DNA from: Candidatus Altiarchaeota archaeon
GTDB taxonomy: Archaea > Altiarchaeota > Altiarchaeia > IMC4 > SCGC-AAA252-I15
Length of the DNA stretch: 59,355 nt
Assembly: GCA_041306075.1 (NCBI GenBank)
Contig: JBFYKH010000079.1
Location: forward strand, 1 to 59,355
Direction: 5' to 3'
Within the stretch, counting starts at the first letter, position 1. Each line of letters begins with the position of its first letter. Below the pieces are notes generated by a model that worked only from the letters and a program-made list of their open reading frames with translations, was not told the origin of the DNA and did no database searches. This document shows, piece by piece, positions 6,841 through 37,777 of this stretch. A program made the translations under genes and the position numbers.

Positions 6841-7285
6841 GAAGGCTGCGAGGAAAAGGTCGGTGCACGTAATGATGGTCTACACCGGGGGCTGCAACGG
6901 CTGCGAGATAGAGATAGCCAACGCCCTATTCTCCCCGTACTATGACCTCGAGCAGTACAACGTGATGATGACGTTCAACCCGAGGGAGGCGGACATACTC
7001 CTCGTCAGCGGCCCGATAACGAAGAGGAACGAGCCGCAGCTGAGGGGGATATACGCGAAGATGCCGCACCCGAAGGCGGTCGTCGCCGTCGGCGCCTGCT
7101 CGATAGTCGGCGGAGTCTACATCAACGTCTTTGGGGAGCTCGGCCCAAGCGACCAGATAAGGGGGCCGCTCGGGAACATACTCGAGGTGGACGCGGCGGC
7201 GAGGGGCTGCGCGCCCACGCCGGAGGAGGTCATAAGGGCGGTGCTGTCGGTGATACCGAAGGTTGTGGAGGGAGACGATGGCTAG
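6833..7285 (+). CDS. ehbM: Ehb [NiFe]-hydrogenase small subunit
   Basis: GGCNGCEIE, VAVGAC, GCAPTPE motifs; GTG 6833 follows GGAGGT SD. Confidence 0.88.
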   Translation: MLRKAARKRSVHVMMVYTGGCNGCEIEIANALFSPYYDLEQYNVMMTFNPREADILLVSGPITKRNEPQLRGIYAKMPHPKAVVAVGACSIVGGVYINVFGELGPSDQIRGPLGNILEVDAAARGCAPTPEEVIRAVLSVIPKVVEGDDG

Positions 7286-8429
7286 CGGCAAGCTCACTGA
7301 AGTCGACGTGGGGACGGTCCACCCGGTCCTCATAGAGCCATTCAGAATCAGGTTCTGGGTGGAGGACGAGACCGTCAGGGACTGCGAGATAACGTACAAC
7401 GCCGCCCACAGGGGCATAGAGCGGCTCCTCGAGGGCATCGCCATAAAGAAGGCGCACATGATAGTGGAGAAGGTCTGCGGCCTCTGCAGCCACTACCACC
7501 TCTGGAACAGCATCAGGGTCACTGAGAAGGCGATGGACCTGGAGGTCCCGGAGAGGGCGCAGTACGTGAGGGTCCTCATCGCCGAGCTTGAGCGCATCCA
7601 CAGCCACCTCTTCTTCATCGCCCACGGCTGCGAGACCATAGGGCAGGAGACGTACACGTACCGGGCCTTCGCGCTCAGGGAGCCGGTGATGAGGATGCTC
7701 TACGAGCTCACCGGCAACAGGGTCCACTACGCGGTCCCCGTGCTCGGGGGGGTGAGGCCGAGGGCGGACCCGACGAAGGAGACCATGGACAGGATTAATC
7801 CGATGCTGAACACGCTCGAGCGCGACCTCAAGGGCTTCGTGGAGCGGGTGACGACGGACCCGCTCGTGATGAGCAGGCTCGAAGGCACGGGCATACTGGA
7901 CAGGGGGGTCGCGGAGGAGCTGCACGCCGTCGGGCCGACCGCGAGGGGCTCGGGCATCAACAACGACGTCCGCGAGCAGATGCACGAGTACGAGGACTTC
8001 AACTACAAGACCATAGTCCTGTCGGGCTGCGACAACAAGGACAGGATACTCGTCCGCGGCCTCGAGCTCTTCGAGAGCATGAACATAATACGGCAGGCGC
8101 TCGACGAGATGCCGGCTGGCCCCGCCTACTTCACCCCGAAGATGAAGCTGGACACAGAGTTCGCGACCACCTACATCGAGGCGCCGAGGGGTGAACTCTT
8201 CCACAGCCTGAGGGTGGACGCGCAGGGGAAGGCCCGCAACTACAGGATTAGGACTCCGACGCCGCCTAATCTCGCCTGCATGGAGAAGGCCGCGGTCGGA
8301 GACCAGCTGACCGACGCGATGCTCACCATAATCAGCTGCGACCCCTGCCTTTCATGCTCAAGCCGCGCCACCGTCGTGGAGGACGGCAGGGAGAGGCTCG
8401 TCGAATTCAAGGAGGTCGGGAAATGCTGA
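7278..8429 (+). CDS. ehbN: Ehb [NiFe]-hydrogenase large subunit (group 4)
   Basis: L1 EKVCGLCSHYH and L2 DPCLSCSSR Ni-binding motifs; EAPRGE; RIRTPT. Confidence 0.9.
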   Translation: MASGKLTEVDVGTVHPVLIEPFRIRFWVEDETVRDCEITYNAAHRGIERLLEGIAIKKAHMIVEKVCGLCSHYHLWNSIRVTEKAMDLEVPERAQYVRVLIAELERIHSHLFFIAHGCETIGQETYTYRAFALREPVMRMLYELTGNRVHYAVPVLGGVRPRADPTKETMDRINPMLNTLERDLKGFVERVTTDPLVMSRLEGTGILDRGVAEELHAVGPTARGSGINNDVREQMHEYEDFNYKTIVLSGCDNKDRILVRGLELFESMNIIRQALDEMPAGPAYFTPKMKLDTEFATTYIEAPRGELFHSLRVDAQGKARNYRIRTPTPPNLACMEKAAVGDQLTDAMLTIISCDPCLSCSSRATVVEDGRERLVEFKEVGKC

Positions 8430-9391
8430 CCGAGGCCGCCGTCGCGCTCTCCATAGCAGCCGCCGCCTCCGCCTTAATCCTCGGTTTGGAGCGTAAAATC
8501 CAGGCGCGCATCCAGCGGAGGCGCGGGCCGTCGCTCCTCATGCCCGGCGTCTGGACGATACTGAAGAGCGCCTACAAGCGGCCGCTGAGGCCGGACTCGC
8601 CGAGCCCCGGGCTCTACGGGATGTTCCTCCTCGCAGGGATATTTTCGCTCGCCGCCATCCTCGTCGTCACCCTGCCGGGGTGGCACGGGATCCTCGGCTT
8701 CGCCTCCCTACTCGGCCTCGCTGGGCTCCTGAAGGTCGAGGAGGCCACCTACCTGTTCATGGGCTCCTTCAGCCGCAGCATAATGAGCACCGGCATGCCG
8801 TTCCCGGACACAATAAGGGGTTCCGAGGAGGCCGGCATCAGGAGCTACTTCGAGGACGTCGCCGCCGTCCGCGCCCTCAAGATGATAACCTTCGGCTCCT
8901 TCCCGTTCTACATCGCCCTCACGATACCGTTCATGAAGGCGGGGAGCATGGAGGTGGGCTCCGTCCTATCGACGCATCCGCCGGCACTGGCCGCCGTCTC
9001 CGGCATGATAGGAGCGGCAGTCTACTTCCTCGGCTACAACATGCTCGCCAACAACCGCCCCTTCGACATAGTGAAGCCGAAGGTCGACATCATGGAGGGG
9101 CCGCTGATGGAGTACATCGCCGGCTGGAGGGCGCTCGCCCACGCGATGAGGGGCCTTTCCCTGTTTGTCCTGTCCAGCGTCTTCGTGACCCTCTACCTCG
9201 CCGTGCCCTTCGACGTCGCGAAGCCGGGGACGGCCGCGCTCCACCTCGCGCTCGCCGTCGCGATGCCCGCCTTCGCCGCGGTCCTGAAGGCTTACAGCCC
9301 GGTGCTCACGTTCAAGCAGATATATCCTGTGTCGCATGCGCTGACCGTGCTCGGGACGGTGGCGGTCGCGCTCGCGTACCTGGGGGTGTAA
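8423..9391 (+). CDS. ehbO: Ehb membrane subunit O (NuoH-like)
   Basis: GLERKIQARIQRRRGP; RPFD; EGPLMEY motifs. Confidence 0.86.
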   Translation: MLTEAAVALSIAAAASALILGLERKIQARIQRRRGPSLLMPGVWTILKSAYKRPLRPDSPSPGLYGMFLLAGIFSLAAILVVTLPGWHGILGFASLLGLAGLLKVEEATYLFMGSFSRSIMSTGMPFPDTIRGSEEAGIRSYFEDVAAVRALKMITFGSFPFYIALTIPFMKAGSMEVGSVLSTHPPALAAVSGMIGAAVYFLGYNMLANNRPFDIVKPKVDIMEGPLMEYIAGWRALAHAMRGLSLFVLSSVFVTLYLAVPFDVAKPGTAALHLALAVAMPAFAAVLKAYSPVLTFKQIYPVSHALTVLGTVAVALAYLGV

Positions 9392-9395
9392 GGAC

Positions 9396-9674
9396 ATGCC
9401 GAAGATAACAGTGGAGAGCGGGATGGTTTTGAACCTAGGGGGGTTCATCGTAGAGAGGAAGGCGAAGCTGCCGTGCGTCGACGTGGTCCTCGGCAACCCG
9501 CTCAGGCAGGACGTGAAGGTCAGGGCCCCGATATACAGCCAGGGGATGCTGGACGACATGGCGGCCCAGGGTCTGATAATCGAATACATAAACGAGGGGG
9601 ATACCCTCAAGGACAAGCTAGACAGTGTGAGAAGGAGGGTCGAGGACGCCCTGGGCAAGCCCCCGGCCCCGTGA
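9396..9674 (+). CDS. ehbP: Ehb subunit P
   Basis: NLGGFIVE...GNP...KV.APIY pattern recalled for EhbP; last gene of operon. Confidence 0.7.
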   Translation: MPKITVESGMVLNLGGFIVERKAKLPCVDVVLGNPLRQDVKVRAPIYSQGMLDDMAAQGLIIEYINEGDTLKDKLDSVRRRVEDALGKPPAP

Positions 9675-9710
9675 CCCCGCGCTAATATACCCAACGGCTA
9701 ATCCTTTAAC

Positions 9711-10130
9711 ATGCTAGTGCGCGACGCGATGTCTCCGAGGCTCATCACACTGTCCTCGGCCCAGACGGTGTACGAGGCCGTAGGCCTCATGGTCGCCAAC
9801 AACATAAGCGGCCTGGCCGCCATAGACAACGGCATCGCAGCGGGCATCATCACGCTCAAGGACGTTGTCCGCCGGGGCGTCGCGAAGGACAGGGACCTCA
9901 GGAGGACGCCCGTGTCCGAGCTCATGACCCGCCCGGTCATAACAATAAACGACAAGGCCCCCATCGAGAAGGCCGCGGACGCGATGAAGGACAGGAAAAT
10001 CAAGCGGCTCGTCGTCGTGGACGACGGGTACAAGGTCGTCGGGATAATAACCGCCATGGACATAGTCTCCGCGGTGCCGAAGCTCGTGAACGTGATGTTC
10101 AACACCTGGAACAAGCCCGACTGGAAATGA
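9711..10130 (+). CDS. CBS-domain pair protein
   Basis: Two CBS repeats (GIITLKDV; RLVVVD...VGIITAMDI). Confidence 0.88.
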   Translation: MLVRDAMSPRLITLSSAQTVYEAVGLMVANNISGLAAIDNGIAAGIITLKDVVRRGVAKDRDLRRTPVSELMTRPVITINDKAPIEKAADAMKDRKIKRLVVVDDGYKVVGIITAMDIVSAVPKLVNVMFNTWNKPDWK

Positions 10131-10178
10131 CTAGCACCCCCGGGAGACTTATGAACGCATCAGCTTGCAGACGATGAC

Positions 10179-10823
10179 ATGAAGCCCCACATAGGCACCG
10201 ACGAGTCCGGGAAAGGCGACTACTTCGGCCCGCTGGTGGTCGCGGCCGCGCACGTGGACGACGCCCTGGAGGCTCATCTCAGGGCCCTCGGGGTGAGGGA
10301 CTGCAAGAGGCTCAGCGACGGCAGGGTCATTGAGCTCGCCAAGGGAATCAGGGAGTCGTGCAAGTGGCAGGTGGTGAGGATAAACCCCGAAAAGTACAAT
10401 GCGCTCCACGCGAAGTTCGGGAACCTGAACGAGCTCCTCGCCTGGGCCCATGCGAGGGCGATAGAGAACCTCCTTGCGAAGGTGGACTGCGACCTCGTCA
10501 TATCCGACCAGTTCGGCGACGAGGCCTACCTCAGGAAGCGGCTGATGAAGAAGGGCGCCAGGGTGGAGCTCGTCCAGATGCCGAGGGCGGAGTCCGACAT
10601 GGCGGTCGCCGCGGCGTCGGTGCTTGCAAGAGCGGAGTTCCTCGCTAGCCTCGACTGGATGACGAAGGCCTGGGGCCTCCCGTTCCCGAAGGGGGCGTCG
10701 AACGTCGAGCACCAGGGGCGGATGTTCGTCGCCGCATACGGGTTCGAGAGGCTCGGCGAGGTGGCGAAGGTCCACTTCAAGACGACGGAGAAGCTGAGGC
10801 TCGGGCCCGACAAAGCCGAGTAG
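10179..10823 (+). CDS. rnhC: Ribonuclease HIII-type catalytic domain
   Basis: IGTDESGKGDYFGPLVVA, NLNELLAWAHARAIENL, DQF, AVAAASVLARAEF, VAKVHFKTT. Confidence 0.8.
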   Translation: MKPHIGTDESGKGDYFGPLVVAAAHVDDALEAHLRALGVRDCKRLSDGRVIELAKGIRESCKWQVVRINPEKYNALHAKFGNLNELLAWAHARAIENLLAKVDCDLVISDQFGDEAYLRKRLMKKGARVELVQMPRAESDMAVAAASVLARAEFLASLDWMTKAWGLPFPKGASNVEHQGRMFVAAYGFERLGEVAKVHFKTTEKLRLGPDKAE

Positions 10824-29218: not shown

Positions 29219-30655
29219 TTACTTGTGCCCAAAGCAGAATACGAGCTTCCCGCCTTCCTTGGAGTCGAGCCTGCAGAACCCGTACCGTTCGAACTGTATT
29301 ATCGCCCCGACCTGGAGGCCCGCCGCCTGCGGCTCGCAGTAGCCCCGGTCCACGGAGCCGTCGGGCTTCAGGACCTCGCACGCGACATAGTCCTGGAGGC
29401 ACTGTATCTTCCTCGCCTTCTTGTGCTCCCCCCGGCAGTGGGAGGCCGTAACCCGCCCGTCCCCGACGGACTTCACCTCTATGCAGGCCAATCCCATCAG
29501 CTTGACGACCTCACCCGCCGACAGGGTCGAATCCGCCCGGCAGATGTACAGGGGGGCGCCTTCCCGGATGCTCTGCTCCCTCACGCCCCGCCCCTTGTGG
29601 GTAGGGTGCAGCGGCATCCGGACGGTCTTGCCGGGCATGTCTTCCACGGTGAGCGCGACCGGGTCCGGTATGAAGAAGTACCTGTCCGTCTTCTCGTCCA
29701 AGAGGCTCCTGTTGAGCGCATACAGGGTGTCCATGCTGACGCCGGCCGCGCTGTCCGAGAGGCCGAGGGAGAGCATGAACTGCCGTACCGCCTCGGGCTG
29801 TATCCCCCGGCGCCTCAGGCCACGGAGAGTCGGGAGGCGGTGGTCGTCCCAGCCCCGGAAGAGCCCGGAAGCTATGTCCGCCGCCATCTTGCTGGTCGAG
29901 AACTTCCCGGTCTCGTCGAGCTGTATCCTCCCCCACAGTATGACTTCCGGGTAATTCCAGCCGAGGTAGTCGTAGACGTACTTCTGCTTTAGGCCTGAGT
30001 CCATGAGGTCTATCCCCCGTATGATGTGGGTGACGCCGCGGACGTGGTCCTCTATCGCGCTCTCGAAGTCGAGCATCGGCCAGACCCTGTATTTGCGGCC
30101 GACTAGGGGGTGCTCGTCCTCGATTATCCTGAACGCCACCCAGTCCCTGAGGGCCGGGTCAGGGTGCTTTATGTCGGTCTTAATCCTCAATGCCGCCTCG
30201 CCCTCCTTGTAGTCCTTGAACATGGCGTTCCAGCGGCGCATGTGCTCCTCTGGGGCGAGCTCCCGGCACGGGCAGGCTATCATCTGGTCCTTCTTCGTCT
30301 TGAACGCCTCCCGCTCGCACGTGCAGACGTAGGCGTGGCCGTCCCCTATGAGCCGGACCGCATACTGGTAGTAGGCGTCTATGTTCAGGGAGGCTGTGAC
30401 CACCTCGTCGGGGACGCAGCCGAGCCACTGGCAGTCGTCCTGAATCCACTGGTAGGCCTCCTTCACCGGCTTCTTCGTCCGGGGGTCGGTGTCGTCGAAC
30501 CGGAGTATGAACCGGCCCGAGTACTTCGTCGCGAGGTAGTGGTTCGTAACCACGCCCCGGGCGTGCCCGATGGTCAGCGTCCCGTTCGGGTTCGGCGCGA
30601 ACCTCAGGACCGCCCCCTTCGGGTCCCCGGGCAGACGCATCGTATCCTCGGCCAT
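29219..30655 (-). CDS. gltX: Glutamyl-tRNA synthetase (archaeal type, short N-terminus)
   Basis: RFAPNPNG.L.IGH, LRFDDTDP, WP.LDF, THIIRG, QFER.GFCRLD. Confidence 0.93.
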   Translation of the reverse strand: MAEDTMRLPGDPKGAVLRFAPNPNGTLTIGHARGVVTNHYLATKYSGRFILRFDDTDPRTKKPVKEAYQWIQDDCQWLGCVPDEVVTASLNIDAYYQYAVRLIGDGHAYVCTCEREAFKTKKDQMIACPCRELAPEEHMRRWNAMFKDYKEGEAALRIKTDIKHPDPALRDWVAFRIIEDEHPLVGRKYRVWPMLDFESAIEDHVRGVTHIIRGIDLMDSGLKQKYVYDYLGWNYPEVILWGRIQLDETGKFSTSKMAADIASGLFRGWDDHRLPTLRGLRRRGIQPEAVRQFMLSLGLSDSAAGVSMDTLYALNRSLLDEKTDRYFFIPDPVALTVEDMPGKTVRMPLHPTHKGRGVREQSIREGAPLYICRADSTLSAGEVVKLMGLACIEVKSVGDGRVTASHCRGEHKKARKIQCLQDYVACEVLKPDGSVDRGYCEPQAAGLQVGAIIQFERYGFCRLDSKEGGKLVFCFGHK

Positions 30656-30656
30656 G

Positions 30657-30995
30657 TTACATCAGCTTAAGCCCCCCGGTTATACGGTCGAGTTCAGACT
30701 CCTCAGCTGGCCCGAGGCCGACGCACGTCTTCGTGCCGGGTTCCAGCTGCGTGTGGCCCGCGTCCTCTATGAGGACAGCGGCTATCCCCGCCCGCTTTCC
30801 TTCGCTAAAGACAGACATCATCTCCGCCTCGTCCCTGACCTTCACCACCGTCTTCTTCTGGCCGGCGGCAATCCAGTCGGCGCGATACCTGCTCTTGTCC
30901 GCGGCCGAGAGCGCGGCGTGCGCCACCTGCGCCGCCAGCTTCCCCTTCCCCATCTTGAGGTCGCACCGGACCGCTATAACCTGCTTCAAGGCCAT
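30657..30995 (-). CDS. pth2: Peptidyl-tRNA hydrolase Pth2
   Basis: MGKGKLAAQVAHA, GQKKTVVKV, IEDAGHTQ..PGT.TC.GLGP. Confidence 0.95.
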   Translation of the reverse strand: MALKQVIAVRCDLKMGKGKLAAQVAHAALSAADKSRYRADWIAAGQKKTVVKVRDEAEMMSVFSEGKRAGIAAVLIEDAGHTQLEPGTKTCVGLGPAEESELDRITGGLKLM

Positions 30996-31036
30996 CCAAG
31001 CTATAAATAGGGGCCCGCAATATTAATAGGATTCGG

Positions 31037-32059
31037 ATGAAGGAGCTCTGGGTGAAGGCCGACGGGGAGCGGCCGTGGGAGGAGAGGAAGAAGGCTGTGA
31101 CCGCGGCCCTGGAGGCTGGGGCGGACGCAGTCATCGTCAACTCCGGCGAGGAGGGGAAGGCGAGGGGCCTGGGGAGAATCAGGATTGTGTCGTCAGGCGG
31201 GGACGCCGACCTGGTGCTGGAGAAGGACGCGTTCTACAGGGAAATCCGGTCCAAGGCGGACGAGAAGGACATCGCAGCCCTCGGCCTGAAGGCCAAGTAC
31301 GTGGCGGTGAACGCCAGGGACTGGAGGGTCATCCCCCTCGAGAACCTCATTGCAGCGCTCCAGGGGAAGTGCAGGATAATAGTGGAGGTTGCCGACGCAG
31401 AGGAGGCGAAGACCGCCCTGGAGACGCTGGAGGTCGGGGCCGACGGAGTCCTGGTGTCGGATGCGAAGGGGGCTGGGAAGGTGAGGGACGTCGTGGACGC
31501 CATGTCGTCGGAGAGGCTGAAGCTGACGCCGGTGAAGATAAAGTCCCTGAAGCCGGTGGGCATGGGCGACAGGGTCTGCGTGGACACCGCCAGCATGCTC
31601 GCCGTCGGCGAGGGGATGCTCGTCGGCAGCCAGGGCTCCAGCATGTTCCTGGTGCACAGCGAAAGCATAGAGACCGAGTACGTCGCCGCCAGGCCGTTCA
31701 GGGTGAATGCGGGCGCGGTGCACGCGTACATCAGGCTCCCGGGGAACAAGACAAAGTACCTGAGCGAGGTGAAGACGGGCGACGAGGTGCTCGCAGTCGA
31801 CGCGAAGGGGGCTACGAGGAACGTGATAGTCGGCCGCGCCAAGGTGGAGAAGAGGCCGCTCATACTCGTGGAGGCGGAGGCCGGCGGCGCTAAATTGAAG
31901 ACGCTCCTGCAGAACGCGGAGACCATACTGCTCGTGAGCCCTGAGGGGAAGCCGGTCTCCATCGCGAGGCTGAAGGCCGGGGACATGGTGCTCGCCTACA
32001 TCGAGGAGGGAGGCAGACACTTCGGCATGAAAGTCAAGGAGACTATAGCCGAGAAGTAG
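31037..32059 (+). CDS. aroB': 3-dehydroquinate synthase II (archaeal oxidative deaminating type)
   Basis: DWRVIPLENLIA, GDRVCVDT, RPFRVNAGAVHAY, LQNAETI, RHFG. Confidence 0.94.
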   Translation: MKELWVKADGERPWEERKKAVTAALEAGADAVIVNSGEEGKARGLGRIRIVSSGGDADLVLEKDAFYREIRSKADEKDIAALGLKAKYVAVNARDWRVIPLENLIAALQGKCRIIVEVADAEEAKTALETLEVGADGVLVSDAKGAGKVRDVVDAMSSERLKLTPVKIKSLKPVGMGDRVCVDTASMLAVGEGMLVGSQGSSMFLVHSESIETEYVAARPFRVNAGAVHAYIRLPGNKTKYLSEVKTGDEVLAVDAKGATRNVIVGRAKVEKRPLILVEAEAGGAKLKTLLQNAETILLVSPEGKPVSIARLKAGDMVLAYIEEGGRHFGMKVKETIAEK

Positions 32060-32133
32060 CATCGTTTCCGCCAGCGCTTTGCGAGCAAAAGGGCTGCGGG
32101 ATGAAAGTCGAGGAAACCATTGCCGAGAAATAG
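32024..32133 (+). repeat. Imperfect direct repeat of the aroB' 3' end
   Basis: 32024-32059 (GMKVKETIAEK*) vs 32098-32133 (GMKVEETIAEK*); 30/36 nt identical. Confidence 0.92.
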
Positions 32134-32175
32134 GCGGCAGGTCATATTTTAACGCGGCTTTCTCGATGTTAACTG

Positions 32176-34890
32176 ATGCTCAAGCAGGGCTCCAAAAAGG
32201 CCGATGAGGCGGCAGCCGGCGTCGAAGGAACGCTCCCGAAGCCCGCCGAGTTCAACGGCATCATGACCGAGCAGGCGCTCCTGCAGCGGATATTCGGCCA
32301 GAACGTCACCGCCGTGGCCACCGACAGGTTCATCAACAAGTCCCGCGACGCCTACAACCTCCCGTTCCTGGCGAGGGAGGTCACGCAGAACTGGGTCGAC
32401 CACAACCCGAGGCGCGGCACCCTGGACGGCGTCGAGGTGAAGGTGGAGGAGAACGCCGGGGCGGGCATGCACAGGGTGACCATCACGGGCGGATGGGACA
32501 TAACCGACGTGACCGGCCTCACCCACCTGCACTCCGACAAGCCCGGGGAGGGCGAGTCGGCGGGCGGCAACGGCATCGGCCTCAAGCAGGTGGCGATACG
32601 GTATCTGAGGGACTTCGCGGTCACGAGGTTCGACGTGGACGGCAACAGCGACGGCAGGGGCTTCAGGGTGTCTTACCGCCTCGTCAAGGCTTCAGAGGCC
32701 AACCTGGAACTCGGGTCCAGGGGCGTCCCACAGAGGCTCAGGCACGACTGGCTGGTGGCCCAGCTTGCCGACGCCCCCGAGAACGCGGGCGGAAAATGCT
32801 CATACACCATCGAGACAGGGAACGAGGACATCGTGCGGTCCCTCAGGCAGGTGGAGAGGATAGGCGTCTCGGCCCGGAACCCGCTCCTTGCGAACCCGGA
32901 CTTCGATAACGGGAAGGGCTCGCTCAGGTGGCAGACGACGGCGGAGCTAGAGGCCGGGGAGCCGACCGGCCTGTTCATCAACGGCCAGGCGTGGAGCTTC
33001 ATGCAGGACGGGCCCACAATCGAAGGCCACTTCAGGGGCCCGGAGGGCGTCACCGTCAGACTGAACGACCTGAAGCACGACATGAGCATAGACCGGCCGC
33101 CCATAGACAGGTACAGGCTCGAACGGTACGTGGACGGCCTCGTCTCGTCGATGGGCAGGGACGAGCTCGTAGGGCAGCTGAAGAAGTCCGAGCACATATG
33201 GGGGGCCCTGGACGACAGGAGGTACGGCTCCGACAGGCTGGGCTCGTTCGTAGTCATAGAGAAGATGGTGGAGAAGCTCGTCTGGAGGCACAGCTTCAAG
33301 GCCGACGACTTCAACCGCGAATTCCAGGGAAGGACGTACGTGTGCCGCAACGAGGGAGTCTCCGACGAGCAGGTGGCCAGCCTGAGGGCGGATGGTTGCG
33401 TAGTCTGCCCCCCCTACTTCGAGCGCCTCGGGGTCCCGAGGGCGTCTGGCAGGTTCAGCTCCTTCGACGAGGCCGCCATGAAGAAGCCGGAGCTGACAGG
33501 CTACAAACAGAAGGAGCTGGCGCGGGAGTTCGGCTTCGTAGTGGCTGCGGAAGGCCTGGGGGACGCGACAGGGAAGGCCCTCCTGGAGCGGATGATGGAG
33601 GGGCTCGCCGACGCCAAGCCGTCCGTCGAGGAGACTGGCGCCAACAGGTTCAGGGTCAGGTTGAAGGGGAGGATTCCGGAGGATGCGCTGTTCCACCCGC
33701 TCCACAGCCCCAAGACGGGCGAGCAGAAGCGCCTCCATTTCATACGGGGGGTTGTGAAGGCAGGCCTCGAATCAGGGGCTATGAAGAGCGTGTTCACGTC
33801 GACTGGCGAATACGTCACCACGTACGCCACGCAATACGATTCCGTGGCCGGGGAGCACCTGCTCGTGGCGAGGAACGTGAGGAACGAGGACGCCGGCGGC
33901 GCGTTCATCGAGTTCGAGCTTAAGCCTGAGCTCTCGGAGAAGTTTAGGGTCATCGCAGGAGGGGCCAAGAAACCAGCCGAGGCGGAGCGCCAGTCCGGGG
34001 GCGAGCACCAGGGGAGAAGCCGGCGGCTCAGGAGGATGATGGCAGCCGCAGCGGGCGTCGCGCTCACGGCCGCAGTCGGCGCGCTCGTCTTTGTGAAGCC
34101 CGGCGGCCAGGGCAATGGCCTGGCCGATAAGCCTAGGGTGGAGGCTCAAGCAGGAGCGCCGTCCGCGCAAGCCAAGATGGTTGTCGCATCGTCTGCGCAG
34201 GAGTTGGAGGCCGCGGTCAGAATCCTTGAGAATATCATCCCTGCGCGGGCTGCGGACGACAAAGGCCCGGCCGAACAGTACGGCGCCTGGAAGACGGGAG
34301 GGGACTTCTACGGGCAGGCCGCAGGCGGGGCGGAGTACCTTAAGGGCGGGACCTTAAGGGAGCTGATAATGCAGCATAACAGCGCCCGGGTAGAGCCTGC
34401 CGGCGAGGGGGAGGACGGCCTGAATGCGACGCTTCAGGCCTTGGCGAACAGGCTGGCGCCCCCGGAGGACAGGGTGGAAGGCTTCGAGATAGTCCTTAAG
34501 CCTGCGGAGAGGCAGCTTGCGCAGCTCGGCCTCATGAGGAAGTACCTCCACATCGCCACTGGCGCGGCAGTCCCCCATGACTTCTTTATCTTCAGGGGCA
34601 GGGGGGCGAAGGGCGTAAACATAGGCGGCGACAAGGCTATAGGATTCCACGAGGGGATGCTGGACACCCTATTCGAGAGCGCGGTCGGGACCGGGGCGCA
34701 CGAGCTCGCCCACACGCACTCCATGGGCCACGGCAGGGAGTTCATCGCCGCACTGCAGTCGACGATGGGCGAGATAGCCAGGAGGCTCGGCGACATAAAC
34801 GAAAGGTTGGATAGCGGCTCCGGGCTGACCGGAGACGACAGGGCGCTCTTGGACATCAGGGAGGGGTGGGACAGCCTCAGGGCGAAGTGA
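32176..34890 (+). CDS. Orphan multidomain protein: GHKL-like ATPase, central TM, C-terminal HExxH metallopeptidase-like domain
   Basis: REVTQNWVD (N-box-like), GGNGIGLK (G2-like); hydrophobic MMAAAAGVALTAAVGALVFV; AHELAHTHSMGHGREF. Confidence 0.6.
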   Translation: MLKQGSKKADEAAAGVEGTLPKPAEFNGIMTEQALLQRIFGQNVTAVATDRFINKSRDAYNLPFLAREVTQNWVDHNPRRGTLDGVEVKVEENAGAGMHRVTITGGWDITDVTGLTHLHSDKPGEGESAGGNGIGLKQVAIRYLRDFAVTRFDVDGNSDGRGFRVSYRLVKASEANLELGSRGVPQRLRHDWLVAQLADAPENAGGKCSYTIETGNEDIVRSLRQVERIGVSARNPLLANPDFDNGKGSLRWQTTAELEAGEPTGLFINGQAWSFMQDGPTIEGHFRGPEGVTVRLNDLKHDMSIDRPPIDRYRLERYVDGLVSSMGRDELVGQLKKSEHIWGALDDRRYGSDRLGSFVVIEKMVEKLVWRHSFKADDFNREFQGRTYVCRNEGVSDEQVASLRADGCVVCPPYFERLGVPRASGRFSSFDEAAMKKPELTGYKQKELAREFGFVVAAEGLGDATGKALLERMMEGLADAKPSVEETGANRFRVRLKGRIPEDALFHPLHSPKTGEQKRLHFIRGVVKAGLESGAMKSVFTSTGEYVTTYATQYDSVAGEHLLVARNVRNEDAGGAFIEFELKPELSEKFRVIAGGAKKPAEAERQSGGEHQGRSRRLRRMMAAAAGVALTAAVGALVFVKPGGQGNGLADKPRVEAQAGAPSAQAKMVVASSAQELEAAVRILENIIPARAADDKGPAEQYGAWKTGGDFYGQAAGGAEYLKGGTLRELIMQHNSARVEPAGEGEDGLNATLQALANRLAPPEDRVEGFEIVLKPAERQLAQLGLMRKYLHIATGAAVPHDFFIFRGRGAKGVNIGGDKAIGFHEGMLDTLFESAVGTGAHELAHTHSMGHGREFIAALQSTMGEIARRLGDINERLDSGSGLTGDDRALLDIREGWDSLRAK

Positions 34891-36370: not shown

Positions 36371-37777
36371 TCAGCCTTTGACGACGCCCATCGGGACGAG
36401 CTTCGCTACGAGCCTTCCGAGGCCGGCGAGCTCGACGCTCCTGACGACTTCGGTCACGTCCTTGTAGGCGTCAGGCTGCTCCTCGGCGAGGACCTCGTAG
36501 CTTGCGGCCCTGATGACCTCCCCCTTGGCCTCAAGCCGCCTCTGGACGTCCTCTCCGCGGACGGACTGCTTCGCCTTGCTCCTGGACTGGATGCGCCCCG
36601 CCCCGTGGCATACGCTGCCGAAGGACTCTCTCATGGCCGCCTCCGTCCCCACGAGCACGTAAGATGCCGTGCCCATGTCGCCTGGGACGAGCACCGGCTG
36701 TCCGACGCCCCTCAACTCAGCCGGCACCTCGCGCCTGCCGGCCGCGAAAGCCCTCGTCGCGCCCTTCCGGTGGACGCATACCTCGGCGCCGCCGTGCTCC
36801 TCGAACTTGGCTATGTTGTGGCAGACGTCGTACACCATGTCGAGGCTCGAGCCCGGGAAGTGCCGCCTGAACGACTCCCTCACCCAGTGGGTGATGAACT
36901 GCCTGTTGGCGAACGCGTAGTTGACGGCGCAGTACATCGCCTTCACGTAGTCGGCGGCCTCCCTGCTCGCGATTGGAGCGCACGCGAGCTCCGGGTCCGG
37001 GAGCTTTATCCCGTACTTCCTCGACGCGCCGAGCATCACCTGTATGTAGTCGTCCGCGACCTGGTAGCCGAGGCCCCGGGAGCCGCAGTGCACCATCACG
37101 GTCACCTGCCCCGGCTCCCTGATGCCGAACGCGGCCGACGCCTCCGGGTCGTATATCTCATCAACCCTCGCCACCTCGAGGAAGTGGTTGCCGGAGCCGA
37201 GCGTCCCGAGCTGTGGCCGCCCCCGCTTCTTCGCCTTGTCGCTTATCGCCGACGGGTCAGCCCCCTTGATGGCGCCGTCCTCCTCGGTCCGGGCTAGGTC
37301 TGCCTCGAGGCCGAACCCCTTCTCCACGGCCCACCGTGCCCCGGAGACGCACACGTCCTCCAGCTCCCTGCCGCCGTACCGGAGCCTGCTTTCCGAGCCG
37401 AGCCCGGAGGGCACCTCCTCGAAGAGCGTGTCCGTTATCGCCCTCAGCTTCGGCCGCACGTCGTCCGCAGTCAGGTTCGAGGCCAGGAGGCGGACGCCGC
37501 AGTTGATGTCGTAGCCGACGCCGCCCGGGCTGATGACGCCTTTCTCCATGTCGAAGGCCGCGACTCCGCCGATGGGGAAGCCGTAGCCGTAGTGGCCGTC
37601 GGGCATCACGAGCGCCGGGGAAAGTATCCCGGGGAGCCTTGCGACGTTGCTTATCTGCCTGAACACCCCCTCCTCGATGGTCGGGTACAGTTTGTCAGAC
37701 GCTATTATCCTCGCCGGCACGTTCATCCCGTCCTCCCTGAACTCCCACACGCCCTCGCGCAACTTGACCGGCTTCAT
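36371..37777 (-). CDS. rtcB: tRNA-splicing/RNA repair ligase RtcB
   Basis: MPDGHYGYGFPIGG, GYDINCG, GSGNHF, HRKGAT, HGAGR, EEQPDAYKD; no intein. Confidence 0.96.
   Translation of the reverse strand: MKPVKLREGVWEFREDGMNVPARIIASDKLYPTIEEGVFRQISNVARLPGILSPALVMPDGHYGYGFPIGGVAAFDMEKGVISPGGVGYDINCGVRLLASNLTADDVRPKLRAITDTLFEEVPSGLGSESRLRYGGRELEDVCVSGARWAVEKGFGLEADLARTEEDGAIKGADPSAISDKAKKRGRPQLGTLGSGNHFLEVARVDEIYDPEASAAFGIREPGQVTVMVHCGSRGLGYQVADDYIQVMLGASRKYGIKLPDPELACAPIASREAADYVKAMYCAVNYAFANRQFITHWVRESFRRHFPGSSLDMVYDVCHNIAKFEEHGGAEVCVHRKGATRAFAAGRREVPAELRGVGQPVLVPGDMGTASYVLVGTEAAMRESFGSVCHGAGRIQSRSKAKQSVRGEDVQRRLEAKGEVIRAASYEVLAEEQPDAYKDVTEVVRSVELAGLGRLVAKLVPMGVVKG

Follow-up and report, generated by a model that had tools for sequence, protein, structure and literature searches.

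A recoded-looking copy of the aroB' gene end beside a palindrome in an Altiarchaeota contig, probably a relic of gene-end exchange

The contig of a Candidatus Altiarchaeota archaeon studied here (GenBank JBFYKH010000079.1, positions 1 to 59,355; we call this whole 59,355-nucleotide stretch the window) carries aroB', the gene for 3-dehydroquinate synthase II (DHQS II), and repeats the last codons of that gene shortly after its stop codon in what looks like a recoded form. We propose that the second copy is the non-functional remnant of a tail that formerly belonged to the resident aroB', left by recombination at a palindrome that separates the two copies, and we put the probability of this reading at roughly 0.6. 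The parts of the duplicated region are:

31037-32059, + strand: aroB', DHQS II, intact, 340 aa; Pfam PF01959, E 2e-132, profile positions 1-344
32023-32059, + strand: copy 1 (S1/X), the functional tail, codons (F)GMKVKETIAEK plus TAG
32060-32067, + strand: linker CATCG and a TTT run, directly before the palindrome
32068-32096, + strand: the palindrome (hp), with CCGC at 32068-32071, arm CAGCGCTTT at 32072-32080, apical GCGAGCA at 32081-32087 and arm AAAGGGCTG at 32088-32096
32097-32133, + strand: copy 2 (S2/X'), the relic tail CGG GATGAAAGTCGAGGAAACCATTGCCGAGAAATAG, whose first base is the first after the palindrome

Copy 1 is the true end of aroB', because it closes a full-length DHQS II gene in which the PF01959 profile is covered to its last position; homologues in Altiarchaeota metagenome-assembled genomes (MAGs) share 58-93% identity. 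The last 11 codons plus stop, GGCATGAAAGTCAAGGAGACTATAGCCGAGAAGTAG (32024-32059), recur at an offset of 74 nt as GGGATGAAAGTCGAGGAAACCATTGCCGAGAAATAG (32098-32133) with 30/36 bases identical, and at least 30 matches in 36 at one given offset have a binomial chance of ~8e-12. Five of the six differences are synonymous and at third codon positions, and one is a first-position change (AAG to GAG, K to E). To the left the repeat is one base longer (CGG..., at 32023 and 32097) and continues weakly to 40 nt (83%). The 37-nt spacer between the copies reads CATCG-TTT-CCGC-CAGCGCTTT-GCGAGCA-AAAGGGCTG, and the arms of the palindrome pair with one G.G mismatch. Direct comparison bears out what the initial annotation had described at this place, namely a tail that recurs 74 nt on with six differences, five at third positions, a spacer stem CAGC...GCTG with TTTGC/GCAAA, and a distance of 42 nt from the end of copy 2 to the ATG at 32176. 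The palindrome occurs in the window (62% G+C) only at aroB'. A repeat search found no third tail copy in the 59 kb, and the window has no tRNA gene as a possible integration target.

Tail copies follow aroB' in eight relatives, regardless of the genes downstream (relatives and other palindrome loci are cited by their L numbers). The closest, L288 and L289 (92-93% amino acid identity to the window's aroB'), have the stop codon, 6 nt, the TTT run with the palindrome and then a 45-nt tail copy. The exact palindrome pattern also stands directly after aroB' in L282 (77% aroB' identity, 24-nt tail copy), L286 (74%, 11-nt tail copy) and L003 (34-38-nt tail copy), the last with an aroB' that is only 59% identical and yet with the same palindrome arms after the stop codon. 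Linkers in the relatives measure 5-6 nt (GGTAG, AATTC, GCTACA), and in all palindrome-bearing relatives the tail copy starts 0-2 nt past GGGCTG. A single tail is found in L281, L285, L287, L081, L002 and others. An assembly artefact from mixed strains is a natural concern, as these are metagenome assemblies from populations with co-existing alleles. It is nonetheless very unlikely, indeed close to negligible, because nine independent assemblies from separate projects (NCBI, JGI, ENA) show this architecture; the versions are lineage-specific, the spacer is structured and conserved, and the palindrome recurs at no fewer than 120 other loci.

Two pairs of near-identical contigs carry mosaic tracts that end at the palindrome. 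L286 and L287 encode an identical protein, and their DNA is identical over ~1.43 kb bar two substitutions near the contig end, up to the last 88 nt of aroB', where L286 has 12 substitutions relative to L287, all synonymous (12 differences in 88 nt vs 2 in 1430 nt; Fisher p 6e-14). This patch is followed in L286 by AATTC-TTT-palindrome and then by the 11-mer AAGGAGACTAT, after which identity with L287 returns; L287 itself has a single tail and no palindrome. The 11-mer is L287's tail allele (AAG GAG ACT AT), not the functional tail of L286 (AAA GAG ACA AT). The resident tail has been displaced to the 3' base of the palindrome, and a 60-nt deletion at TAT microhomology accompanies it. On this comparison, a diverged gene-end allele came into L286 together with the palindrome, pushing the resident tail downstream. 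The second pair, L288 and L289, is identical over ~2 kb bar one isolated substitution, a terminal gap and a patch of 23 differences in 268 nt that begins 235 nt inside aroB' and reaches as far as the loop of the palindrome (23 in 268 nt vs 1 in ~1455 nt; p 2e-18). The mark of a mosaic allele, a clustered and mostly silent block in an otherwise identical background, is thus present in both pairs; it is these relatives that document it, and not the window itself.

The recoded look of copy 2 has a simple explanation on the same terms. Across seven genomes, 33/36 differences between copy 1 and copy 2 fall at third codon positions (p 4e-13). Several of these copies cannot be translated: L003 has ATA for ATG, the copies of L282 and L286 are truncated and lack an ATG, and the stop in L282 is now TAT. 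The third-position bias must therefore predate the displacement. The two copies in each genome would then be former or present functional tails of different lineages, which would account for both the silent-site bias and the recoded appearance. Once displaced, the relic decays, as orthologues document. The L288/L289 relic shows divergence at every codon position, and the window and L288 relics differ at 9/37 bases (codon positions 1:3:5) and 4/11 residues, to be compared with differences at 0.38 of the 4-fold sites of aroB' and at ~8% of its protein. The two relics start 8 nt apart, and each has the lineage-specific residue of its own copy 1, Ala in the window and Glu in L288; these offsets and matching residues seem best explained if the relic has been re-created repeatedly.

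These comparisons also bear on whether copy 2 functions in place, either as a 10-residue micro-open reading frame (micro-ORF) serving as an enzyme C-terminus mimic or as a coupling upstream ORF for the following gene, or as an alternative RNA pairing in the 3' untranslated region (UTR) that terminates or stabilises the transcript. ATG and stop are kept in the window, L288/289, L001, L284 and L004, the TGA of the last copy in L001/L284 overlaps the next ATG as ATGA, and the T-runs together with the stem could act as an archaeal terminator. Set against this are the loss of the ATG in L003, the truncations in L282 and L286, the loss of the stop in L282 and the 4/11 residues that separate the window and L288 relics; moreover, no Shine-Dalgarno-like sequence is present, the window's ATG lies inside a stem predicted by folding, and the folding z-scores are unremarkable (-1.45 to -1.56). 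We consider a function in place improbable. Translation of the 10-codon micro-ORF (32101-32133), which the initial annotation had raised, is not supported, given that its ATG or stop is lost in relatives and that 4/11 residues differ in L288; the conserved start, frame and stop and the purifying selection on the peptide that mark a translated small ORF were not found among the relatives compared.

A further idea would make copy 2 the real tail, with the 74-nt unit removed by bulge-helix-bulge splicing or skipped by ribosomal bypassing. Loss of a single full repeat period would leave the frame intact, the palindrome is known from tRNA introns at other loci, and RtcB is encoded nearby, the last probably a coincidence. 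But copy 1 already ends with a stop and completes a full-length protein, the palindrome in the window is antisense relative to its orientation in tRNAs, and the relics in L282 and L286 are too truncated to act as tails; we find the idea hardly tenable. The 4-bp CAGC/GCTG helix was also rejected as a bulge-helix-bulge motif, as it has facing unpaired triplets (a 3x3 internal loop) and not staggered bulges. A diversity-generating retroelement was rejected as well: in either direction only 2/6 differences are at presumed template adenines, and aroB' is a housekeeping gene.

We envisage that aroB' 3' ends in this Altiarchaeota group have been exchanged repeatedly between diverged lineages, with the exchanged tract ending at the palindrome. 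The incoming unit would be a donor's functional tail, or the tail with linker and palindrome. On the left it would enter by homologous crossover inside aroB', and on the right it would be joined at the palindrome's 3' base, against the resident tail; alternatively, the donor's own relic would cross over with the resident tail. The displaced resident tail would survive downstream as a fragment starting exactly at the palindrome and would later decay. Microhomologies at the joins (CTG/CTT-CGG in the window, AAGG in L282, AAAG..TG in L286) may suggest how the right-side join forms. A cassette of tail, linker, palindrome and relic would find homology in a resident gene on either side, with a relic able to pair with the resident tail, and double or unequal crossovers could spread the cassette, renew the relic and build arrays such as the three tails of L001/L284 or the three units of L277. 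In the window, copy 1 would be the imported one.

What role the palindrome would play in these events can be read in two ways. The palindrome, or any hairpin after a stop codon, may be a preferred break or join point and cause the events; alternatively, it may be a mere identity island that lets crossovers resolve downstream of the gene. In the first case breakage of a fragile hairpin could, for instance, be mended by homologous or microhomology-mediated synthesis. Palindromes are fragile, being subject to hairpin cleavage by SbcCD / Mre11-Rad50, and such fragility combined with homology-facilitated illegitimate recombination (HFIR) would yield one-sided tracts and templated duplications. The first duplication could possibly have arisen by a transposition-like insertion with target duplication.

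Several observations weigh against the relic reading. L001, L284 and L004 duplicate their tails without a palindrome, which is therefore not necessary for tail duplication at aroB', and between L001 and L284 the orthologous second copies show just 4 differences, all of them at third positions, a pattern that fits only with conversion among copies or further exchanges. Obvious flank duplication accompanies only ~11% of palindrome copies. The right end of the L288/L289 tract can be placed only by its last marker, which lies in the loop of the palindrome. Neither a near-identical relative of the window without the palindrome nor donor alleles were found, and the direction of exchange, with copy 1 imported and copy 2 resident, would be carried over to the window from L286, where it is documented. 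The window's relic also retains its ATG and stop and, by folding, prolongs the stem, and a structural or regulatory role for it in the 3' UTR is still conceivable.

The palindrome-free cases have a structure of their own. L001 and L284 (78% aroB' identity) have three tails in tandem and L004 (60%) has one tail copy, and in all three the stop codon is followed at once by a spacer that opens with the tail's HFGM codons in inverted form; in L004, ATCCCGAAGTG is the reverse complement of CACTTCGGGAT. Inverted and direct templated copies thus stand together at these gene ends, and the inverted ones look like a snap-back (templated repair) signature. They are located at L004 2443-2486, L001 7024-7037 and L284 1607-1620, where the hairpin encloses the stop codon. 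The three tandem tails span L001 7024-7172 and L284 1607-1755 with a period of ~74-75 nt. In both, the stop of the last tail (TGA) and the start of the following gene (ATG) share bases as ATGA; that gene is a 152-aa membrane-like ORF in L001 and an MBL-fold gene in L284. This arrangement suggests that the last tail was where the gene originally ended, in translational coupling with its neighbour.

The palindrome belongs to a family that extends well beyond aroB'. We scanned one genome per species for the pattern CCGCCAGCGCTTT, 3-25 nt, AAAGGGCTG, for which we estimate ~1.6 chance matches, and found at least 120 stretches. Among the matches listed, all but three are titled archaeal MAGs, the hosts are Woese-, Pace-, Aenigmat-, Micr-, Iain- and Nanoarchaeia (DPANN), Altiarchaeota, Thermococcaceae, Thermoplasmata and 'Methanobacteriota', and some genomes hold several copies per MAG. 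A TTT run precedes the palindrome in 120/125 copies elsewhere, TTT being absent from the search pattern. The apical part varies in length and is self-complementary: 183 Watson-Crick pairs prolong the stem, where 32 would be expected and 1000 shuffles gave no more than 52. G.T and A.C 'pairs' in the apical stem are equally rare (6 vs 9) and indicate no folding strand, and a DNA-level palindrome is just as likely as an RNA hairpin.

Many copies are associated with tRNA genes. Nineteen of 127 palindromes abut tRNA 3' ends and 15 are inside tRNA genes as intron content, with the tRNA on the strand opposite to the palindrome in 32/35 tRNA-associated copies. At tRNA 3' ends the palindrome begins 1-3 nt past the gene; examples of tRNA-associated loci are L176 2697-2813, L186 30-149 and L204 4832-4948. 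As a tRNA intron it was confirmed at canonical and a few other positions only; intron placement in the T-loop was confirmed neither by Rfam nor by intron deletion followed by ARAGORN. At Rfam gathering scores, 36 palindrome loci gave tRNA, rRNA and one C/D small RNA, and only tRNA families cover a palindrome; window positions 31900-32300, searched at E up to 10, gave two chance-level hits only. Searches of the searchable literature for the palindrome, by sequence and by topic, returned nothing relevant. Plasmid and phage collections contained chance matches only and IMG/VR one, bacterial-looking; because these collections gave essentially nothing, the palindrome is not obviously virus- or plasmid-borne.

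Some loci depart from the simple form. Seven Thermoplasmata loci (L184, L200, L205, L208, L214, L215, L234; MAG contigs JAGGSX..., CAZYCK...) carry the palindrome inside a longer multi-copy repeat, …AAAAAGAACTGATACATTTTT-palindrome-AAGAAAGGGCTC…, whose flanks look like degenerate palindrome arms. Variant arms, CCGGGAGCGCTTT…AAAGGGGTTC and TCGCCAGCGTTTT…AAAAAGGCTG, are found at tRNA 3' ends (L227 2650-2700 and 4999-5038; L003 12655-12695), and the family is therefore broader than the exact search pattern. The Thermococcus-type variant is present in MAGs only, and in no cultured isolate. In L165, L185, L188, L207, L219, L223 and L243, which are of this type, ~200 nt upstream of the palindrome, read in its own orientation, are conserved across different tRNA loci; the conserved stretch includes the GC-rich hairpin GCGCCCTTCGGGCGC, and the palindrome loops are GNRA-like (GTGA, GTAA). 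This stretch may represent a longer repeat, or else an RNA gene, unannotated and convergent with the tRNAs.

Duplication of flanking sequence is seen at some of these loci too. Among 126 palindromes tested, the right flank recurs (at least 14 nt exact) on the left in 14 and on the right in 3. The 3' 23 nt of tRNA-Gln are duplicated across the palindrome in L163, and a gene tail plus its terminator, 64 nt, in L175. In L277 (minus strand, ~400-650), a Memo/AMMECR1-like gene has its ribosome-binding site, ATG and first 12 codons in triplicate, as identical copies (42-53 nt) separated by two identical palindrome copies, a recent expansion at a gene 5' end. A 12-mer test for short target duplications at all palindrome copies showed no excess over controls; the excess concerns longer repeats only. 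Because most palindrome copies have none, flank duplication is an occasional by-product and not a constant feature.

These loci are part of the case for a different account of the first step, in which the palindrome is a small non-autonomous mobile element, of the type of repetitive extragenic palindromic (REP) sequences or miniature inverted-repeat transposable elements (MITEs) or a mobile intron core, that was inserted with a ~37-nt target-site duplication. The copies would have started out identical, and the silent differences would stem from a later allelic exchange that affected only copy 1; the account overlaps with the relic reading and differs only in the origin of the duplication. It would sit well with the recent and identical duplications found immediately beside the palindrome in L277, L175 and L163, with the asymmetry of duplication (14 left vs 3 right), with the multiple copies in some genomes, the patchy taxonomic distribution and the strict sequence conservation, and with the palindrome's presence as tRNA intron content. 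Yet at 120 loci (each up to 8 kb) the neighbourhood of the palindrome shows no recurring transposase, integrase or reverse transcriptase, nor any other protein family that recurs. Duplication lengths of 11-64 nt are unlike those of any known transposase, ~89% of palindrome copies are without flank duplication, and the truncated relic and 60-nt deletion of L286 would need three separate events. We regard insertion of a mobile element as an unlikely though real possibility. A MITE or transposase target-site duplication in the strict sense was rejected: it has a fixed short length, and the duplications here vary between 11 and 64 nt, most palindrome copies having none. The 37/37/37 layout of the window's copies also brings a CRISPR-like array to mind; a CRISPR array or ectopic Cas1-Cas2 integration was rejected, since one conserved palindrome makes up the 'spacer' wherever it was found and the 'repeats' measure 11-64 nt.

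Taken more broadly, the palindrome could be an undescribed, horizontally spreading archaeal element of DPANN, Altiarchaeota and some Thermococcaceae/Thermoplasmata MAGs that acts as a breakpoint or recombination hotspot and promotes the exchange of gene ends among lineages. It would settle where it is tolerated, in tRNA introns, tRNA 3' flanks and gene ends, would duplicate neighbouring sequence, and may seed tRNA introns. We offer this wider reading tentatively, at odds somewhat below even.

Downstream of copy 2 the window contains the following features:

32143-32152, + strand: AT-rich box ATATTTTAAC, ~29 nt (centre to ATG) before the ATG at 32176
32176-34890, + strand: 'orphan 1', 904 aa, a variable gene outside the duplication and within the segment of broken synteny with L288
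34932-35684, + strand: 'orphan 2', 250 aa, outside the variable segment and 78% identical in L288

The box may be an archaeal TATA-type promoter of the next gene. The initial annotation took the two genes for orphans, inserted as a unit with its boundary at the aroB' tail. They are not orphans: beside the orphan 2 homologue, L288 encodes an orphan 1 homologue of 1072 aa (7260-10478, opposite strand) that is 31-36% identical to the window's, while the flanking genes are 78-93% identical. The 904-aa gene thus looks hypervariable or swapped. Neither protein has a Pfam, NCBIfam or PADLOC match; the N-terminus of the 904-aa protein includes an E-x-x-x-N-x-x-D string that may be reminiscent of GHKL ATPases. 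The contig P0007 has a 921-aa gene at the same place as orphan 1 (by position only), and the gap after aroB' is 146 nt in P0007 and 306 nt in P0005.

The proposed insertion boundary held up in part. Homology between the window and L288, its closest relative, ends right after copy 2 and resumes ~35 nt before the orphan 2 ATG, marking a recombination boundary. The segment 32176-35684 is not an inserted unit, because tail copies occur in relatives whatever lies downstream: a different, inverted neighbour in L288 and L289, other genes in L282 and L286, a small membrane-like ORF and then an MBL-fold gene in L001, and the MBL gene directly in L284. Relatives lacking both genes had been expected to have a single tail, and L001 and L284, which lack them, have three. 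Nor are the genes bounded by the copies, as no third copy flanks them in the window. A duplicate present regardless of the downstream genes had been named as grounds for giving up the insertion, and this is largely what we observe, though the copies are not identical.

Related to this is the possibility that the copies are attL/attR-like sites of an integrase-driven element, for example the two downstream genes, that targeted the aroB' 3' end and brought a replacement tail, much as e14 or phage 21 does at Escherichia coli icd. A functional and a displaced tail that differ silently are the hallmark of such systems, synteny with L288 breaks right after copy 2, and the segment downstream of aroB' varies between relatives. 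However, the copies are only 37 nt apart with no further copy beyond the downstream genes, so they flank no element; a Pfam scan of nine neighbouring ORFs revealed no recombinase or integrase, and relatives without the downstream genes still carry the copies. The attachment-site reading is largely refuted, and we consider it quite improbable.

Two observations concern other genes nearby. A 146-aa ORF upstream of aroB' (30570-31010, + strand) is probably spurious; at its position relatives encode peptidyl-tRNA hydrolase (PTH2, PF01981) on the minus strand, corresponding to 30657-30995 (- strand) in the window. The RtcB gene of L281 (6504-9422, 972 aa) contains an intein, with PF14890 between two RtcB halves, and the window's RtcB (36371-37777) is without an intein.

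For the annotation of the window, a recoded micro-gene and an att-bounded orphan pair lose support and are replaced by a concrete evolutionary event. More generally, and as a warning for annotation, a short gene-end copy can come to look 'recoded' with no selection acting on it. If the palindrome is causal, it would provide a testable handle on the acquisition of tRNA introns and fragments in archaea, and on the local channelling of gene flow between diverged archaeal lineages.

Several known systems resemble parts of this picture. Palindrome fragility through SbcCD / Mre11-Rad50 would explain the joins at the hairpin base, the one-sided tracts and the templated copies in L001, L284 and L004, but would not explain the conservation of this particular sequence. 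HFIR, reportedly described in 2002 by de Vries and Wackernagel and by Prudhomme et al., and mosaic genes share with our cases a tract with one end in homology and the other at microhomology, indels, and a silent block in an identical background; unlike in random HFIR, the illegitimate end at aroB' falls at the same palindrome in several lineages. Group I introns and inteins co-convert flanking exon sequence when they home, and the presence or absence of a small insert with an adjoining donor-marker tract (L286 vs L287) is similar. Here, however, there is no endonuclease gene, the tract is one-sided, the insert is outside the reading frame and the target is duplicated.

Transposition of tRNA introns is known from the Thermoproteales. 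A mobile element also disrupts archaeal tRNA genes and leaves gene fragments and new introns, the insert being 1.8 kb long and recombinase-bearing (Sugahara et al. 2012, PMC3293823). The likeness lies in partial gene-end duplicates beside an insert and in the palindrome's presence in tRNA introns and by the duplicated tRNA-Gln 3' end, whereas our insert is a ~40-nt palindrome with no gene. Bacterial REP sequences, the bacterial interspersed mosaic elements (BIMEs) built from them and REPINs are mobilised by RAYT (Y1) transposases (PMC2817692, PMC3116915). Our palindrome is REP-like in its size (30-45 nt), its imperfect pairing, its conserved unpaired 5' tetranucleotide (here CCGC), its conserved mismatch and its variable apical part, and in its location after genes and its multiple copies in some genomes, although the window itself holds one copy in 59 kb. 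It differs in being archaeal and cross-phylum with an identical core, in occurring in tRNA introns and at tRNA 3' ends, and in having no Y1 transposase near it at the loci searched. Flank duplications are not known from REPs.

For the recoded pair the closest analogy is icd/icdC. The 3' end of Escherichia coli icd is replaced by e14 or phage 21, leaving the icdC pseudogene fragment. As at aroB', the housekeeping gene receives an intact but foreign 3' end with mainly silent differences, and the displaced end persists downstream. At aroB', however, there is no prophage, integrase or other element between the copies, just 37 nt with a palindrome, and the exchange would be homologous on one side and palindrome-bounded on the other. 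The gene-end relic of aroB' is a variant of this known kind of recombination scar; the palindrome appears to be undescribed, and to be the more interesting object of the two.

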